From Minisyncoccota bacterium (lineage in GTDB: Bacteria > Patescibacteriota > Minisyncoccia > Phycocordibacterales > DATDWN01): 64,000 nt of DNA. Where the stretch lies: the NCBI GenBank assembly GCA_041674105.1, contig JBAYWK010000002.1:79411-143410 (forward strand), given 5' to 3'. Under the pieces are notes generated by a model, which saw nothing but the letters and a program-made list of their open reading frames with translations, did not search any database and was not told the DNA's origin. The translations under genes and the position numbers were made by a program. Numbering within the stretch: position 1 is the stretch's first letter; each line of letters starts with the position of its first letter. Positions 14,343 through 39,505 of the stretch are shown one piece after another.

Positions 14343-14380
14343 GACTCTCCTCGGAGTCCGAAACTATCTCAAGCTGGCTG
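14343..14380 (+). repeat. 36-bp direct repeat, copy 2 (right boundary of Mrr islet)
   Basis: same sequence as 10827-10865. Confidence 0.8.
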
Positions 14381-14395
14381 CCCGACAAGGATCGT
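14377..14395 (-). repeat. displaced partial copy of tRNA-Gln 3' end
   Basis: minus-strand GATCCTTGTCGGGCAGCC vs tRNA-Gln 3' end GAGTCCTTGTCGGGCAG. Confidence 0.7.
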
Positions 14396-14560
14396 GATTA
14401 CACTTCTCTCCCTCGCCTCTCAAGTTTGCCGTCGCAAACTTTCGGGCTGGGCACCGACTCACGTCTTGGTTTTGCTAAAGCAAGAATCGCTCCGTCGTTC
14501 GAGTCCTTGTCGCAAAACATGTTTTGCTTCGGACATCAAAAACAGCTTCGCTGTTTTTTG
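14396..14560 (-). repeat. tRNA-trailing structured mini-element (family B-like) downstream of tRNA-Gln
   Basis: contains hairpin AAGTTTG-CGACGG-CAAACTT and an inverted copy of the tRNA T-arm (GCGACAAGGACTCGAACG). Confidence 0.55.
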
Positions 14561-14631: not shown

Positions 14632-14922
14632 ATACATATTTATTTTTACTACATTTATTTTTATTCTAAAGGTATCGATACCTTGGACGCTTTTGGACTA
14701 TTTGCCAAGTGTCCTACTACAGCTCCGCAAAGCTACGCTGCACTGCGATTTCAAGAGATTGAGTACAATCTAAGAAATCGGGAGCATTAGACCTGTTTGC
14801 GCAAGCAAACGATCGGGCAATATTTAAAATAAATGACAAGAGCAGTATAGCAGATTATAAAAATTTTTTCTATTCCAAAAAAAACTGTTATAATCAATAT
14901 CTTATTTTTAACAAACTTAGAT

Positions 14923-27252: not shown

Positions 27253-27256
27253 CATT

Positions 27257-27406
27257 AAAACGAAGTTTTTATACGCTGGATAGGAGCAAGAGTGCCTGTG
27301 CACTCTTGCGAGAGAATCGAACTGACCGGAGCCATGTTTTGCTAGCAAGCAAAACGGGCGAGGTGAGGCCAACAGAAATTTCTGAGCGACGGTGAGGAAA
27401 TTATCT
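27257..27406 (+). repeat. tRNA-trailing structured mini-element (family A-like) downstream of tRNA-Leu(CAA)
   Basis: contains inverted T-arm copy GAGAATCGAACTGACCGG and hairpin AATTTC-TGAGCGACGGTGAG-GAAATT. Confidence 0.55.
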
Positions 27407-27434
27407 GGGTTTCGATTCTCCCTCCCGGCACATT
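27407..27434 (+). repeat. displaced direct copy of tRNA-Leu(CAA) 3' end
   Basis: TTCGATTCTCCCTCCCGGCACATT identical over 24 nt to 27233-27256. Confidence 0.85.
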
Positions 27435-28427: not shown

Positions 28428-28429
28428 CA

Positions 28430-28549
28430 TAAAGAGAATCTTTGTGGCCCGATGAGAACAGTTTGTCGGTCTACGAGCCTAGCAAGGCTTGTCGACAAAC
28501 TGGTGACCAGAAAAATCACTTGCGACGGCAAGTGATTTTTCGAGGGAGA
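28430..28549 (+). repeat. tRNA-trailing structured mini-element (family B) downstream of tRNA-Trp
   Basis: GAACAGTTTGTCGGTCTACGAGCCTAGCAAGGCTTGTCGACAAACTGG core plus hairpin AAAATCACTTG-CGACGG-CAAGTGATTTT; near-identical copy at 38951-39083. Confidence 0.7.
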
Positions 28550-28568
28550 GATTCGGGGTGGGCCCGCA
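28550..28568 (+). repeat. displaced direct copy of tRNA-Trp 3' end
   Basis: GATTCGGGGTGGGCCCGCA vs tRNA GAGTCGGGGTGGGCCCGCA. Confidence 0.8.
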
Positions 28569-30410: not shown

Positions 30411-30705
30411 TTTTATAATAGACCCAACTACTAATGCACACCCGACTGAATAAGATGCCGGAAGGTACCAATTACCATCACTTTCTTCTGAGTACAGAGA
30501 AGTTATACAGGATTACGCCACAAAATGTGGTGGAACAATGGTTAACAACTCGAAGATTAAACAAACTCTGCTTAACTACGCCCTACTTAGATACATGGGA
30601 AATGCAGGGCAAAACATAAGATGGGATAATCCAGTTCCAAAAACAAATTAATTAAAAAATTTGACCAATAAAACAAAAACCCCCTTAAGAAGGGGGTTTT
30701 CTTTT

Positions 30706-30723
30706 TGTGCGCCGGGAAGGATT
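30706..30723 (-). repeat. displaced direct copy of tRNA-Tyr 3' end
   Basis: TGTGCGCCGGGAAGGATT identical to 30888-30905. Confidence 0.85.
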
Positions 30724-30887
30724 ATTCCGCGAGTAAAATTTTGCCGTCGCAAAATTTTCTCGTGTCCGCAGCTCGCGACCCAGTCTGCTGACTGGGTACC
30801 CCGCTCCGCTTTTCGAATCCTTACGTAAACCTCTCCCAGAGGTTTACTCCCAGCGCAAAAGCAAAAATCCTCTTACGAGGATTTTTC
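30724..30887 (-). repeat. tRNA-trailing structured mini-element (family A) downstream of tRNA-Tyr
   Basis: reverse complement reads GGATTCGAAAAGCGGAGCGGGGTACCCAGTC-TGCTGA-GACTGGGTCGCGAGCTGCGGACACGAG...AAAATTTTG-CGACGG-CAAAATTTT, co-linear with 38713-38874 and 62099-62264. Confidence 0.7.
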
Positions 30888-30889
30888 TG

Positions 30890-30972
30890 TGCGCCGGGAA
30901 GGATTCGAACCTTCGTAGGCCGAAGCCGACAGATTTACAGTCTGTTGTAATTGACCACTCTACCACCGACGC
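30890..30972 (-). tRNA. tRNA-Tyr (anticodon GTA)
   Basis: GCGTCGG acceptor, anticodon loop CTGTAAA, long variable arm CGGCTTCGGCC, T-arm GAAGGTTCGAATCCTTC. Confidence 0.8.
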
Positions 30973-30979
30973 AATAATA

Positions 30980-31219
30980 TTATTCTAAAAGTTTTTTGAA
31001 AGCATTGCCACCTTTATAACTTTTAATTTTTTTCTCCCTAATAAAAGCCTCTTTACTATTTGAGTATTCTTCAAAGTAAACTAGTTCCAATGGAAATCTT
31101 AGCTTAGTTGAAAAATTATACCCTAAATTATGTTCTTTTATTCTGCGTTCTAAATTGTTAGTACAACCGATGTAATATTTATTATCTACCAAGCTTTTAA
31201 GTATATAAACATACCACAT
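30980..31219 (-). CDS. small stand-alone GIY-YIG nuclease domain protein
   Basis: 79 aa MWYVYILKSLVDNKYYIGCTNNLERRIKEHN: GIY...YIG motif followed by R and EHN. Confidence 0.7.
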   Translation of the reverse strand: MWYVYILKSLVDNKYYIGCTNNLERRIKEHNLGYNFSTKLRFPLELVYFEEYSNSKEAFIREKKIKSYKGGNAFKKLLE

Positions 31220-31248
31220 ATATTGTAATTGACTTCACCCCGCCTCGG

Positions 31249-31265
31249 CGGGGCAAGCTCTACCA
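31249..31265 (-). repeat. displaced copy of tRNA-Tyr 5' end (followed on minus strand by GC hairpin CCCCGCCGAGGCGGGG)
   Basis: minus strand GCGTCGGTGGTAGAGC equals tRNA-Tyr positions 1-15. Confidence 0.75.
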
Positions 31266-31325
31266 CCGACGCATTAAAAATAATATAGCACATTTTTCAA
31301 TATACCACATTATTTTTGGACTATC

Positions 31326-34001
31326 CTATGCTAACACACTCTTCTCCACAAAACTATCTCTTGCAAAAGATCCTTTTTTACCTTTCTTGATGTCAAAAAC
31401 ATACTCGTTATTCTTTATATCAACATCTATTGTTCCCCCTTTCATTATTTTCTTACCTATTATAAGTCCAGCCACTGGATTTAATATTTTAGTCTGAATC
31501 AATCTCTTCAAAGGTCTAGCGCCATATTGTGAGCTATACCCTTCTTTTGCTAAGTGTTTGTAAACCCCCTCAGATAATAGAATGCTTATTTCTTTTTGTT
31601 TCAATCTTTCTGTAATTATTTTTACTTGAAGTTTTACAATCTCCTCTATAGCCTCTTTGCTCAAAATATCAAACACCACTATTTCATCTAAACGGTTTAG
31701 AAACTCTGGTCTAAAGTAATCTTTCAAAGCAGTCATAACTTTTGTTTTAGCTTCCTCATAGCTAGCTTTCTCTGTTTTATCGTAAGCAAAACCGATCTTT
31801 TCCATTTTATCTATATATTGAGAACCAATATTTGAAGTCAAGATAATTACAGAGTTTCTAAAATTTACCACTCTACCTTTGGCGTCTGTTAGTTTTCCAT
31901 TGTCCAAAACCTGCAAAAGAATATTGAAAACTTCAGGATGAGCTTTCTCTATTTCATCAAACAAAATAACAGAATAAGGTCTATGACGAATCTGTTCCGT
32001 AATACTTCCACCTTCCTCGTGACCAACATAGCCCGGAGGAGCTCCTATAAGCTTTGAAATGCTGTGTTTTTCCATAAACTCAGACATATCTACCCTTATC
32101 AAAGCATTATCATCATTAAACATAAATTCAGCCAAAGCTTTTGTGAGCTCTGTTTTACCAACACCTGTAGGACCCAGGAAGAGAAAAGATCCTATTGGTC
32201 TATTTGGATCAGAGATTCCAGCCCTAGATCTTTTTATTGTTTCAGCAATTTTGTTGACTGCTTCATTTTGTCCGACAATCCTACCCTTCAAGACTTCTTC
32301 CATTCTATTTAATTTTTCAGCTTCTTCCTCTAACATTCTATAAACAGGAATACCTGTCCATTTTGAAACAATAGAAGCAATATCATTTTCTGTTATTTCT
32401 TCCTTCAAAATTCTACGAGAACTTTGAAGTTTTTTCAGTCTCTTTGATTTTGTATCCAACTCCTTTTCCAAAGCTGGAATTTTTCCATACCTAATTTCAG
32501 CAGCTTTAGACAAATCCGCTTTAGCTTCAGCTGTTTCAGCTTCTCTGCGAATTTCTTCCAGTTCCTTTTTTATAGACTTTATATCTGTGACAGTTTCTTT
32601 TTCATTTTTCCATTTAAGCTCTAGCTCACTTGTTTCCTCTTTTAGATCAGCAATCTTTTTTTCTATTTCTTTTGTTCTATTTTTTGATTTTGCATCTGAC
32701 TCTTTTTTTAAAGCTTCTTTTTCAATCTCCAACTTTACAATTTTAGAACGAGCATCTTCCAAGATAGGAGGCATATTTTCCAAAGCAATTTTTAAATATG
32801 AAGCTGACTCGTCCATTAGGTCAACTGCTTTGTCTGGTAAAAATCTATCAGTAATATATCTACTGCTTAAGTTTACAGCAGCAATAATAGCTTCATCTGT
32901 AATACGAACTCCATGATAAAGCTCGTATTTTTCTTTAAGTCCTCTTAAAATAGTTATTGCATCTTCTACACTAGGCTCATTTACAGATACAGGTTGAAAT
33001 CTACGAGTTAAAGCCGGATCTTTTTCTATATATTTTTGATATTCTTTTAGAGTCGTTGCACCAATAGCTCTAAGTTCTCCTCTAGCTAAAGCTGGTTTAA
33101 GCATATTTGAAGCGTCCATTGAGCCTTCGGCTGAACCTGCGCCAACAATAGTGTGAATTTCGTCTATAAAAAGAACAATCTTACCGTCAGACTTCTCTAT
33201 TTCTTTTAAAATGTTCTTCAATCTTTCTTCAAACTCACCTCTATATTTTGTTCCGGCAATCAAAAGACCTAGATCAAGAGAAATAAGTTCTTTGTCTTTC
33301 AAAGATTCTGGTACATCTCCCATAGACATTTTTATAGCCAAACCTTCTACTATAGCTGTTTTACCGACACCAGCTTCGCCAATAAGAATAGGATTGTTTT
33401 TTGTACGACGAGAAAGTATTTGTACTATACGAGATATTTCTGTATCTCTACCAATAACAGGATCAAGTTTATTTTGTAAGGCAAGTTTTGTTAAATTTCT
33501 AGTATACTTTGAAAGAGTTTTGAATTTTTTTGGAGTGTCTTTCAAAGTTTCTTTTGTATTTTTAAGTTCACTTAAAACTCTTATTATATTTTCTTTATCT
33601 ATTTTAAATTTCATCAAAAGATCTCTAGCCAAAGATGGTACTGAAATAACAGACAAAAATAAGTGTTCGGTAGAAATAAAATCATCCGAAAGAGCCTCGG
33701 CTTCTTTCGCCGAATTATCCAAGGTTGCTGCCAATTCTGGAGTTAAATACATTTGATAAGACGCAGATAGAGTCTGTCCGATTTCATTTCCTTCTATGGC
33801 CTCCGACAAAGAATCTGAAAGTAAGACAGTATCAACTTCCAATCTGTCCAATATAGAGGTGACTATACTATCTTCTTGCAACACTAAAGCTGCCAACAAG
33901 TGAAGTGGGTTTACATGATTTTGACCACGCTCAATAGCCAGTTCATGAGCTTTTCTAATAGCCTCTTTAGCTTTTGTTGTAAATTGGTTAAATGGTGGCA
34001 T
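31326..34001 (-). CDS. clpB: ATP-dependent chaperone ClpB
   Basis: 891 aa; two AAA+ modules ([15 protein letters not shown]; [15 protein letters not shown]) separated by long coiled-coil M domain. Confidence 0.9.
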
Positions 34002-38705: not shown

Positions 38706-38712
38706 AAAAATC

Positions 38713-38874
38713 AAATGTTGATTTTTTGATCCCAGAGAGCAAGGCAATGTTATTGCCTTGCGTTGGGAATCGAAAAGCGGAGCGGTCTACAGTCACACCA
38801 GTGACTGTCGCGAGTTGCGGACACGAGAAAAATTTTCGACGGAAAATTTTTACTCGCGGAAGATTCCCCACCAC
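38713..38874 (+). repeat. tRNA-trailing structured mini-element (family A) between tRNA-Leu(TAA) and tRNA-Lys
   Basis: hairpins AAAAAATCAA-ATG-TTGATTTTTT, GCAAGGCAAT-GTT-ATTGCCTTGC, then GGGAATCGAAAAGCGGAGCGG, ACAGTCAC-ACCA-GTGACTGT, CGCGAGTTGCGGACACGAG, AAAATTTTC-GACG-GAAAATTTT. Confidence 0.7.
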
Positions 38875-38950: not shown

Positions 38951-39083
38951 CAGAAAAAAGTAATCTTATTACTTTTTGTCAGGATTTGAACAGTTTGTCG
39001 GTCTACGAACCTAGCAAGGCTTGTCAACAAACTGGTGCCTAGAAAAATTACTTGCGACGGCAAGTAATTTTTTGAGGGAAAAT
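38951..39083 (+). repeat. tRNA-trailing structured mini-element (family B) downstream of tRNA-Lys
   Basis: TTGAACAGTTTGTCGGTCTACGAACCTAGCAAGGCTTGTCAACAAACTGG and hairpin AAAATTACTTG-CGACGG-CAAGTAATTTT; co-linear with 28430-28549. Confidence 0.7.
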
Positions 39084-39099
39084 TCCTGCTGGGTGCACA
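39084..39099 (+). repeat. displaced direct copy of tRNA-Lys 3' end
   Basis: TCCTGCTGGGTGCACA vs tRNA TCCTGCTGGGTGCACC. Confidence 0.8.
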
Positions 39100-39505
39100 C
39101 GATTCAAAAACAGCATGTTATGCTGTTTTTGTTTACGTGTGCAAGACGGAGCGCGACGGCGCGAGTCCAGGTCGGGAAAATTTTTAGCAAAAAATTATTC
39201 CTGACCACAAGAACTTCCAGATTTTTTCTTACATGTGCAGACTGGAGCGGGTACCAGCTCACTAGGGCTGGTCGCGAGGTCAGGGTCCGAGGAAATTTTC
39301 GAGCGACGGCGAGAAAATTATCCAGGACACATGATTCTTGAGTGACAACTAAATAAAATACCCAATTGGGGTACTAATCCTGTAAGGATCGATATCCTGC
39401 CACAATAATACTGGAGTCCAAGGAAATTTTGTTTTGACGAAAACAAAATTATCCAGGACACATGAACTAAAATTATTCCTGACCACAAGGACTGTTTCAA
39501 ATTTT
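39100..39505 (+). repeat. tandem array of further mini-elements, each ending in a progressively degenerate copy of the tRNA-Lys 3' end
   Basis: units end AAAATTATTCCTGACCACAAGAAC (39200), AAAATTATCCAGGACACATGATTC (39324), AAAATTATCCAGGACACATGAAC (39455), AAAATTATTCCTGACCACAAGGAC (39478); unit 39223-39323 is family A (GGAGCGGGTACCAGC-TCACTAGG-GCTGGTCGCGAGG...AATTTTC-GAGCGACGGCGA-GAAAATT). Confidence 0.6.

Follow-up and report, generated by a model that had tools for sequence, protein, structure and literature searches.

Introduction

Ssn proteins are single-domain GIY-YIG proteins of about 94 amino acids (aa) that bind a GC hairpin repeat, NTS/SRM, and were found experimentally to cut single-stranded DNA (ssDNA), not double-stranded DNA or RNA, just upstream of the hairpin; their genes are typically flanked by NTS/SRM hairpins (Nat Commun 2025; PMC11893778). 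In this work we analyzed a gene for a similarly small GIY-YIG protein in a stretch of 64,000 nucleotides (nt) from contig JBAYWK010000002.1 of a Minisyncoccota bacterium (hereafter, the window). There, on the minus strand, an open reading frame (ORF) of 79 aa lies between an intact tRNA-Tyr gene and a partial copy of the same gene that carries a GC hairpin. We consider it probable that the two components, a minimal GIY-YIG nuclease gene and its cognate GC hairpin, constitute a two-part selfish element living inside tRNA genes. On the best reading of the data, this element invades tRNA genes but leaves a functional tRNA in place or provides one.

The window locus and its homologues resemble the Ssn systems (SsnA of Neisseria meningitidis; CDD cd10448) in that (i) the protein is a single GIY-YIG domain of ~80–100 aa, (ii) the hairpin stem is CCCCGC/GCGGGG or TCCCGC/GCGGGA, and (iii) the order hairpin-gene-hairpin is seen in the complete tRNA forms described below. 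They differ in several respects. The Ssn hairpins are flanked by CGTCAT…ATCCAG and number hundreds per genome, whereas the hairpins studied here lie within tRNA copies and number one or a few per locus (one in 64 kb). The C-terminus reads YKGGNAFKKLL in the tRNA-linked family and KKWxRxWKxxLIEExNP in Ssn. Finally, the tRNA linkage is tight here, whereas the word 'tRNA' does not occur in the main text of the Ssn paper (PMC11893778).

The same minimal domain forms the UPF0213/YhbQ/YazA proteins (PDB 1zg2, 1ywl), which gave the best solved-structure matches to the window protein both by sequence (E 2e-4) and by fold. However, identity amounts to only ~30–40% over the core, and close relatives may either have or lack genes of the window type. 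UPF0213 genes are regarded as normal chromosomal genes, and we know of no hairpin or pseudo-tRNA context for them.

Other classes of elements share some features with the locus. Integrase-borne islands and prophages reportedly insert into tRNA genes and use a duplicated piece of the tRNA to restore them, as Williams, among others, is said to have described in 2002. They have in common with our locus the tRNA target, the displaced partial tRNA copy and the preserved functional tRNA, but they measure kilobases and duplicate the 3' end, whereas here an insert of ~300 nt without integrase is accompanied by a 5'/internal duplication with a hairpin in the displaced copy. Phage T4 Seg proteins (SegB in a tRNA cluster) and the intron-encoded I-TevI are enzymes of 200 or more aa that possess linker and DNA-binding domains and cut double-stranded empty sites. 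The GIY-YIG catalytic domain and a selfish spread into conserved genes would be common to both, but our locus lacks an intron and encodes only the catalytic core, which is paired with a conserved hairpin. A small gene associated with palindromic hairpins that are recognized in ssDNA is also characteristic of IS200/IS605 and REP/RAYT, and the authors of the Ssn study draw the same analogy (PMC11893778); those systems, however, use HUH tyrosine enzymes with a covalent intermediate and are not nested in tRNA genes, whereas GIY-YIG enzymes hydrolyze. The group I introns of Patescibacteria tRNA genes are self-splicing, occupy anticodon-loop position 35/36 and carry HNH endonucleases if any (bioRxiv 10.1101/2025.07.03.662931). 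Phylum and tRNA target are the same, but here there is no ribozyme, the tRNA is uninterrupted, and duplication takes the place of splicing.

Thus, elements composed of a hairpin and a small nuclease are already known, and the new part is the use of tRNA genes as scaffold and niche. An incomplete literature search found no description of GIY-YIG genes nested in tRNA duplications or of hairpin-substituted pseudo-tRNAs, although an earlier description is possible; a 2006 survey of GIY-YIG proteins mentions tRNA in another connection only.

Structure of the duplicated tRNA-Tyr segment

The fragment upstream of the ORF consists of two blocks identical to tRNA-Tyr. The first belongs to a 16-nt exact repeat, TGCGTCGGTGGTAGAG, at 31273–31258, which comprises the base before +1 plus tRNA positions 1–15; the second is a collinear block of 11 nt located behind the GC hairpin. 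The upstream fragment therefore corresponds to tRNA positions 1–28 in which the hairpin replaces positions 16–17, and the true end of the duplication is the start of the anticodon stem (position 28), 3 nt before the ATG. Two collinear exact repeats, of 16 and 11 nt, inside 300 nt greatly exceed what chance would produce; the G+C content of the window is 34.8%.

An earlier description of this DNA, made from the letters and the predicted ORFs (the sequence-only reading), had listed a 5' copy, a GC hairpin, the GIY-YIG ORF, the tRNA-Tyr gene, a mini-element and a 3'-end copy, and all of these parts were found on the minus strand. It described the 5' copy as 16 nt representing tRNA positions 1–15: fifteen nucleotides do match, while the final C of the 16-mer is not tRNA sequence. 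The duplication breakpoint, which it placed in the D-loop, turned out to be the site where the hairpin is inserted in the copy, since the copy resumes behind it and runs to position 28. Its limit for the locus, 31265, cuts the fragment, which extends to 31272/31273.

Recurrence at other tRNA genes

In total, 80 loci encoding homologues of the ORF were collected in a scan of genomes restricted to one genome per species. These loci, in which the same layout recurs, belong to Patescibacteria, Bacteroidota, Ignavibacteria, Calditrichota, Omnitrophota, Planctomycetota, Elusimicrobiota and others. In 75 of the 80 loci the ORF has a tRNA gene of the same strand no more than 100 nt away, and in two more it reads through into the tRNA. 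Twelve tRNA types are involved: Ser (23 loci), Tyr (21), Gly (18) and Pro (8), as well as Thr, Glu, Ala, Lys, His, Phe, Val and Gln. The neighboring tRNA adjoins the ORF either downstream or upstream, and a pseudo-copy of the same tRNA is found on the far side of the ORF.

When the tRNA is located downstream, the stop codon of the ORF is often the U8-A9-G10 (TAG) of the tRNA itself, and the acceptor stem thus encodes the C-terminal residues of the protein. ORFs running into the downstream tRNA and ending at such a TAG were observed in loci L032, L038, L039, L019, L028, L079 and other loci of this orientation.

The nearest neighbor of a GIY-YIG protein is associated with the same tRNA type in 50 of 79 cases (chance expectation, a fraction of 0.21), the other 29 being switches, and two metagenome-assembled genomes (MAGs) each carry two diverged GIY copies at different tRNAs. 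Clustering by tRNA type, the switches and the two-copy MAGs together indicate that the targets are heritable but not fixed. The pair L022/L023, with 97% identical proteins in MAGs labelled as different families, was considered as a recent horizontal transfer and rejected, their flanks being also homologous.

The GC hairpin and the pseudo-tRNA copies

A hairpin of the form (C/T)CCCGCC-N2-4-GGCGGG(G/A) occurs no more than 200 nt from the ORF in 73 of the 80 loci. With a slightly stricter motif, the density around the ORFs was 1.34 per kb; elsewhere in these loci it was 0.05 per kb (a 27-fold difference), and in 573 kb of tRNA-Tyr loci devoid of the GIY gene, 0.002 per kb. The window contains this motif once. 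The outer base pair was C:G in 50 cases, T:A in 43 and another combination in 9, while independent variation of the two positions would give only ~50 Watson-Crick pairs.

The place of the hairpin depends on the tRNA type. It replaces the whole anticodon arm (positions 26–42) in pseudo-tRNAs of the Gly, Thr, Ala and His types, the D arm in those of the Pro type, and D-loop positions 16–17 in those of the class II types Tyr and Ser, with the same CTTG…TGAAG extension in both; some hairpins are placed at the 7/8 junction or in the T loop. The replacements fall at helix boundaries. The hairpin flanks are mostly 100% identical to the adjacent intact tRNA, and in the Tyr group lineage-specific changes of the D stem appear in the copy and the tRNA alike (e.g., GGCGGAG/TCAATCGCAA in L004/L008).

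In the window, the pseudo-copy is identical to the tRNA at 27 of 27 positions, although synonymous sites of the ORF are saturated between the lineages sharing the insertion. According to our own Jukes-Cantor estimate, neutral decay would have brought the copy to ~60% identity, and the chance of observing 27/27 would be ~1e-6. The copy is therefore not a neutral relic, which would have decayed; it is either selected, homogenized against the tRNA, or repeatedly re-made.

Complete elements with two pseudo-tRNA halves

Some loci contain two pseudo-halves. The left one begins at position 1, includes the hairpin and reaches the T loop; the right one begins in the D stem, includes a second copy of the hairpin and reaches the 3' end. 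A stretch of ~40 nt with the hairpin in it is present in both halves as a direct repeat. The ORF and the intact tRNA lie between them in either order, one being represented by L019, L033, L044 and L062 and the other by L024, L040, L041, L060, L065 and L069.

In L062, L040, L019 and L069 the halves match each other and differ from the intact tRNA between them; for example, in L040 the acceptor stem of the halves is GGTGGTC/GACCACC, and that of the intact tRNA is GTGGGTG/CACCCAC. In these four loci the resident tRNA is split and disabled, and a second, different allele does the work. In L002, a relative with tRNA-Tyr, the downstream right half is a second tRNA-Tyr copy with two hairpins in its D loop.

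The duplicated segment of L062 and L019 begins, on its left side, 8 nt upstream of the stem. This approximates the place where Ssn enzymes cut relative to their hairpin, which is suggestive only.

It should be mentioned that locus L044 contains, at 1744–1830 and beyond, a complete hairpin-substituted pseudo-tRNA-Gly located after the intact tRNA-Gly, which ARAGORN reports as a tRNA of undetermined type. This pseudo-tRNA seems to be tandemly repeated, since ttatgTAGGGAGT… recurs before a run of N.

Occupied and empty tRNA-Tyr loci

Metagenomes were scanned with the exact first 46 nt of the window tRNA-Tyr, and 80 loci were returned. None of these 80 metagenomic loci, 72 of which have enough upstream sequence, carries a GIY ORF upstream of tRNA-Tyr. 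In 29 loci without the ORF, clpB is located directly upstream of tRNA-Tyr, the spacer being 25–155 nt (mostly below 90 nt) as compared with 353 nt in the window. The clpB gene is also upstream in the tRNA-Tyr relatives that carry the GIY gene. The identity of the ClpB C-terminus to that of the window is 42–61% for the GIY-bearing and 43–61% for the GIY-less syntenic loci. Relatives with the GIY gene are thus no closer to the window than empty ones, and the occupancy is therefore patchy.

Wherever relatives with tRNA-Tyr have the ORF, the fragment with the hairpin is found upstream of it, and the same layout is preserved in relatives whose GIY proteins are only 61–75% identical. Loci L103, L127 and L133 contain the copy and the hairpin followed, after 10–20 nt, by tRNA-Tyr without any ORF; they are ORF-less derivatives of the element.

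These data agree with the option of a separate selfish insertion raised in the sequence-only reading, as the 29 syntenic clpB–tRNA-Tyr relatives lack the ORF. They do not fit the opposite case that it considered, a housekeeping gene present at this position in all relatives with no tRNA fragment upstream, because the ORF-bearing relatives all have this fragment. The group I intron frame that it evoked is not appropriate either. Searches against Rfam, at E≤10 for positions 30640–31330 and at the gathering threshold for the whole window, detected only tRNAs, and the downstream tRNA is intact; a group I intron, a known ribozyme and a known small RNA were accordingly rejected as candidates for both the insert and the mini-element. 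Thus, the ORF is neither a housekeeping nor an intron-borne gene. The locus was also compared with integrase-type islands: the insert holds only the 79-aa ORF and no tyrosine or serine recombinase, and the duplicated part is the 5' end.

The GIY-YIG protein and its relation to Ssn

The ORF encodes a GIY-YIG domain alone (Pfam PF01541, E 7e-17, residues 1–67). Its 79 aa are wholly used by the catalytic core and one short C-terminal helix, leaving no DNA-binding module. The AlphaFold model is confident (pLDDT 91) and has the GIY-YIG fold (β-β-α-β-α); the best solved structural neighbors are UPF0213 BH0048, the Slx1 nuclease domain (TM 0.72, rmsd 2.3 Å) and the catalytic domain of I-TevI. Residues Y5, Y16, G18, R26, H30, R61 and E62 are invariant among 40 homologues, in which the C-terminal motif YKGGNAFK.L is also kept. 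Pairwise dN/dS within the family is 0.05–0.24, with dS ranging from 0.7 to saturation; therefore, the ORF is a working gene under purifying selection.

About 569 clusters (50% identity) match the protein at E≤1e-10 among 1.84 billion representatives, the nearest homologues belonging to MAGs of Patescibacteria (Paceibacteria-like). No NCBIfam family scored above its cut-off for this protein, and no second GIY copy was found in the 64-kb window.

The comparison with Ssn proteins was made via plasmid homologues from Azospirillum and Shinella that are flanked by SRM hairpins and stand in for SsnA. A tblastn search of plasmids (7.3 Gb) revealed these proteins of 94–97 aa at E 2e-5 to 1e-4, and the window protein is 39% identical to Azospirillum WP_014249537 (pairwise E 1e-13). 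Bacillus subtilis YazA (UPF0213) was matched at a similar level (E 1e-5). On each side of the Azospirillum and Shinella genes there are two hairpins that match the published SRM pattern (e.g., CGTCATCCCCGCGAAGGCGGGGATCCAG), with the stem CCCCGC/GCGGGG. In the Azospirillum lipoferum plasmid AZO_p3 (L206), the Ssn-type gene with its two inverted SRM hairpins per side is wedged between sufB and sufC; the Shinella plasmid (L207) carries a canonical Ssn-type gene, also with two inverted SRM hairpins on each side.

Judging by sequence, the protein is a minimal Slx1/UPF0213-like domain homologous to the Ssn-type single-strand nucleases, and the nuclease family is thus probably a relative of Ssn, the analogy being based on the identity of the stem and the homology of the proteins. 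The term 'homing-endonuclease-type', which had been applied to the gene in the sequence-only reading, does not suit a bare catalytic domain of 79 aa without a DNA-binding module, whose nearest proteins are UPF0213, the Slx1 nuclease domain and the Ssn type rather than the modular I-TevI or Seg enzymes.

Possible mechanism

The two-part selfish element that we consider probable could operate as follows. By analogy with Ssn, the nuclease would bind the hairpin in ssDNA and nick the DNA a few bases to its 5' side. Such nicks, made around the palindrome on one strand or the other, would create recombinogenic ends (staggered nicks or the resulting 3' ends), and their repair would duplicate the hairpin-bearing tRNA segment, copy the cassette and recombine it with tRNA-homologous DNA. 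Since tRNAs are conserved in sequence, the flanks formed by the pseudo-tRNA and the tRNA could serve as ready homology arms in new genomes. The host would retain or receive one working tRNA, and the insertion would therefore be tolerated and hard to lose. The tRNA promoter (TGCTATATT, 31290–31282), now upstream of the copy, may express the ORF, the tRNA being released from the same or a nested transcript, and a promoter-like site in the ORF's 3' end may sustain expression of the tRNA.

Several points weigh against this explanation. Near-identical copies at two different sites were not found, so that recent transposition is not demonstrated, and an ancient insertion followed by many losses could also give the patchy pattern. 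The window locus has the left half only, with a hairpin on one side, and the copy does not differ from the resident tRNA; the step in which the cassette would bring its own tRNA is therefore not visible here. Cleavage of ssDNA by a protein of 79 aa is proposed by analogy only, the protein being about equally distant from UPF0213/YazA and from the Ssn-type proteins. GIY-YIG enzymes hydrolyze DNA with no covalent intermediate, so cut-and-paste transfer would need repair or ligation by the host. The published SRM pattern (HGTCWY…RNCYNB) gave a single, unrelated match in the 80 homologous loci and none to the tRNA-embedded hairpins, because the flanks of the latter are tRNA sequence and not CGTCAT/ATCCAG. 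Finally, the folding of the hairpin in a 66-nt context with DNA parameters has z of −1.1, which is not significant alone.

A more far-reaching form of the hypothesis remains tentative, and we rate it well below the two-part element itself. According to it, the loci would belong to a hitherto unrecognized, phylum-spanning class of tRNA-gene parasites in which the nuclease reads a hairpin grafted in a tRNA-shaped single strand; the swap of an arm, the split of the resident gene and the supply or retention of a spare intact tRNA, which would make deletion difficult for the host, would amount to a 'kill and replace' strategy. Homology arms for the spread between distant genomes would be provided by the universal conservation of tRNA sequence. 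If this is true, such elements would drive the turnover of tRNA genes and horizontal tRNA replacement in small genomes, and would offer compact ssDNA nucleases in which a grafted scaffold determines the site.

Alternative explanations

An unlikely alternative is that the gene encodes a free-standing homing endonuclease, which would cut the double-stranded, uninterrupted tRNA-Tyr gene, be copied in the course of break repair and gain self-immunity from the hairpin. It would account for the GIY-YIG domain and its structural likeness to the catalytic domain of I-TevI, for the existence of empty and occupied alleles of one conserved target (29 syntenic empty sites), and for the position of the hairpin within the duplicated target; moreover, the GIY-YIG enzyme SegB of phage T4 functions within a cluster of tRNA genes. 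However, the intact hairpin-free tRNA next to the ORF in the occupied allele would itself be cut. Hairpins of identical sequence accompany the ORFs at twelve tRNA types, which suggests that the conserved recognition element is the hairpin rather than the tRNA. In addition, only the catalytic core of ~80 aa is present, whereas modular homing GIY-YIG enzymes require a DNA-binding module (PMC11893778).

We regard as equally unlikely that the gene is domesticated and beneficial for the host, for which, being co-transcribed with tRNAs, it might resolve structures or R-loops at strongly transcribed tRNA genes, restrict incoming ssDNA or protect tRNA genes serving as integration sites, with the pseudo-tRNA and hairpin as a regulatory or binding site. 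The strong purifying selection on the ORF, its long retention at the syntenic clpB–tRNA-Tyr site across lineages with saturated dS, the intact, non-decaying pseudo-copy and the Slx1-like fold, which is a structure-specific nuclease fold, are all consistent with such a role. The authors of the Ssn study propose domestication for the control of transformation (PMC11893778), and a restriction of incoming ssDNA has been proposed for SsnA of Neisseria. On the other hand, the ORF is absent from all 72 informative metagenomic tRNA-Tyr loci with an identical 5' half, 29 of them syntenic, and ORF-less remnants exist. Switches of target type and multiple diverged copies per genome also argue against it, while the disrupted tRNA copies and the tandem pseudo-tRNAs of L044 resemble collateral damage, not design.

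It is very improbable that the nuclease is the trans-acting mobilizer of the 3' mini-elements of ~150 nt (families A and B) located behind eight tRNAs of the window, the other option of the sequence-only reading. The two elements are adjacent at tRNA-Tyr, both kinds contain partial tRNA copies and hairpins, and a CCCGC-type hairpin is present in the 3' mini-element of L009. The mini-element was found at 7 of 22 GIY-bearing and 12 of 71 GIY-less tRNA-Tyr loci, an apparent, weak excess. But the eight elements of the window face one nuclease gene, and they have no GIY gene nearby at seven window tRNAs, nor at the 12 GIY-less loci just mentioned. The nuclease hairpin, single in 64 kb, is absent from the window mini-elements, whose hairpins and loops (GCGACGGC, AACTGCTT, CTGTAAGG) are unrelated to it, and the GIY elements of other phyla come without such mini-elements.

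Least credible of all is an inert relic, i.e., an old local duplication of the 5' region of tRNA-Tyr that trapped a decaying ORF and has no present activity, which would suit the single copy in the window and the failure to find a second, identical one, but not the intact ORF with all catalytic residues and dN/dS of 0.05–0.24, nor a pseudo-copy that is 27/27 identical while synonymous sites of the ORF are saturated.

Possible significance

The two-part selfish element would tie a recently characterized family of small single-domain GIY-YIG nucleases that cut ssDNA beside hairpins, so far biologically unexplained, to a concrete genomic niche, the tRNA genes. It would also account for a recurrent oddity of genome annotation: very small 'GIY-YIG nuclease family proteins' next to tRNAs, accompanied by isolated tRNA fragments and unusual pseudo-tRNAs. 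Furthermore, it suggests how an element of 300 nt may reach different phyla with no integrase, by exploiting the conserved nature of its target. The intact tRNA that is unlike the split resident copy hints at horizontal replacement of tRNA genes, which is relevant to reduced genomes such as those of Patescibacteria. Besides, the pairs of enzyme and hairpin widen the catalogue of candidate site-specific ssDNA cutters.

Coordinates and expression signals of the window locus

The features of the locus and the mini-elements of the window are listed in Table 1.

Table 1. Positions of the tRNA-Tyr locus components and of the tRNA-associated mini-elements in the window.
Feature	Position	Strand	Remarks
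clpB	34001–31326	−	Stop at 31326; 53 nt of AT-rich spacer before the pseudo-tRNA copy
Extended −10-like promoter element TGCTATATT (putative)	31282–31290	−	9 nt upstream of the pseudo-tRNA copy; by sequence inspection
Pseudo-tRNA-Tyr part 1, GCGTCGGTGGTAGAG	31258–31272	−	tRNA positions 1–15; exact repeat D1, k-mer map
GC hairpin module CTTGCCCCGCCGAGGCGGGGTGAA, 24 nt	31234–31257	−	In place of tRNA positions 16–17
Hairpin core CCCCGCC-GA-GGCGGGG	31253–31238	−	
Pseudo-tRNA-Tyr part 2, 11-mer GTCAATTACAA	31233–31223	−	tRNA positions 18–28; exact repeat D7, k-mer map
GIY-YIG ORF, 79 aa	31219–30980	−	Stop codon included; ATG 3 nt (TAT) after the pseudo-tRNA copy
Promoter-like GTGGCA-18-TAGAAT (predicted)	30982–31011	−	Inside the 3' end of the ORF; consensus match
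Intact tRNA-Tyr(GTA)	30972–30889	−	7 nt (TATTATT) past the ORF stop; ARAGORN; Rfam tRNA 60.3 bits
AT-rich terminator-like hairpin with T run	30863–30886	−	Adjoins the 3' end of tRNA-Tyr; inverted repeat I12
Mini-element of family A, ~150 nt	30707–30856	−	Ends in a copy of the tRNA-Tyr 3' end; repeat D2
Copy of the tRNA-Tyr 3' end, 17 nt, AATCCTTCCCGGCGCAC	30723–30707	−	Last part of the mini-element
Strong intrinsic terminator	30675–30701	−	Closes the locus; terminator scan and inverted repeat I1
Mini-element	14377–14559	−	
Mini-element	27254–27431	+	
Mini-element	28429–28567	+	
Mini-element	38706–38874	+	
Mini-element	38951–39098	+	
Mini-element	39987–~40060	+	
Mini-element	62098–62282	+	

The extended −10-like element was not picked up by the scan for −35/−10 consensus sequences. 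A motif of the same type, TGTGTTATTTT, is located ~8 nt before +1 of tRNA-Tyr at the empty sites. Judged by its position, the window element would drive the copy and the ORF (and the tRNA) as a single transcript. The 43-nt repeat D1, which reaches beyond the tRNA on its upstream side, was considered as a duplicated promoter and rejected: beyond the 16 exact bases the match is ~63%, the chance level for AT-rich DNA. The promoter-like site GTGGCA-18-TAGAAT overlaps codons of the conserved C-terminal motif (…GGNAFKKLLE*) directly upstream of tRNA-Tyr, and the coding sequence of the ORF may thus double as the tRNA-Tyr promoter. The AT-rich hairpin at 30863–30886 does not reach the GC criterion of the terminator scan.

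Small elements at other tRNA genes and on the 3' side of tRNA-Tyr

Elements of 110–185 nt are located behind eight tRNAs of the window: Gln, Leu-CAA, Trp, Tyr, Leu-TAA, Lys, Leu-TAG and Glu. They are composed of a strand complementary to the 3' acceptor strand of the tRNA, a hairpin, the reverse complement of the T loop/T stem of the same tRNA, a conserved core and a copy of the tRNA 3' end. In subfamily A, the core carries the motifs AAGCGGAGCG and the GCGACGGC loop, while the Trp and Lys elements form a second subfamily; the Leu-TAA element has a degenerate 3' end, and the Leu-TAG element is truncated. The predicted RNA fold of the Tyr element has an energy of −74.9 kcal/mol (z −8.2). In one subfamily (12 sequences), compensatory changes were found in 16 of 30 predicted pairs, including those between the 5' arm and the displaced acceptor strand. 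Rfam contains no family that detects the mini-elements. In all loci collected, a displaced 3'-end copy was present downstream of 48 of 320 tRNAs, a count that includes the right halves of GIY elements. A tRNA-like RNA, an integration scar and a mobile element are the candidate explanations of the mini-elements.

Since the mini-elements occur at GIY-less tRNA-Tyr loci and without the nuclease hairpin, they are treated as an independent family. The sequence-only reading was right that tRNA-Tyr is bracketed by copies of both its ends, but we judge that this is so because two unrelated tRNA-seeking elements, one per side, happen to flank it. The displaced 3' end might also represent the second half of a resident tRNA-Tyr that a single composite insert has split; this possibility is not favored, as mini-elements at tRNAs lacking a 5' copy also come with identical copies of the 3' end.

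In the GIY-bearing tRNA-Tyr locus L009, a hairpin TCCCGC-TAGG-GCGGGA is located at ~1960–1985 inside the 3' mini-element, just before the displaced 3' end. It is the only contact seen between the nuclease and mini-element types.

Two further stretches of the window deserve mention. At 14675–14819 on the minus strand, upstream of tRNA-Gln, there is a pseudo-copy of tRNA-Gln positions 1–49 with a 17-nt hairpin after position 11, a D-loop insert of ~66 nt and a changed anticodon loop, separated from the intact tRNA by ~45 nt of AT-rich spacer. It contains neither an ORF nor the CCCGCC hairpin and is possibly a different 5'-side element or a relic. At ~39099–39210 on the plus strand, the mini-element of tRNA-Lys is followed by a terminator hairpin and a stretch with GACGGAGCGCGACGGCGCGAG that resembles the subfamily A core, possibly another partial mini-element without a tRNA.

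Other 5'-side duplications of tRNA-Tyr were revealed in loci L110, L125, L130, L138 and L162 and in L135 and L148, all of them without the GIY gene. In one set, tRNA positions 1–8 are followed by a conserved insert of ~65 nt; in the other, positions 1–10 are followed by a hairpin and a segment containing AAGCGGAGG. The 5' ends of tRNA-Tyr genes thus attract several unrelated small elements.

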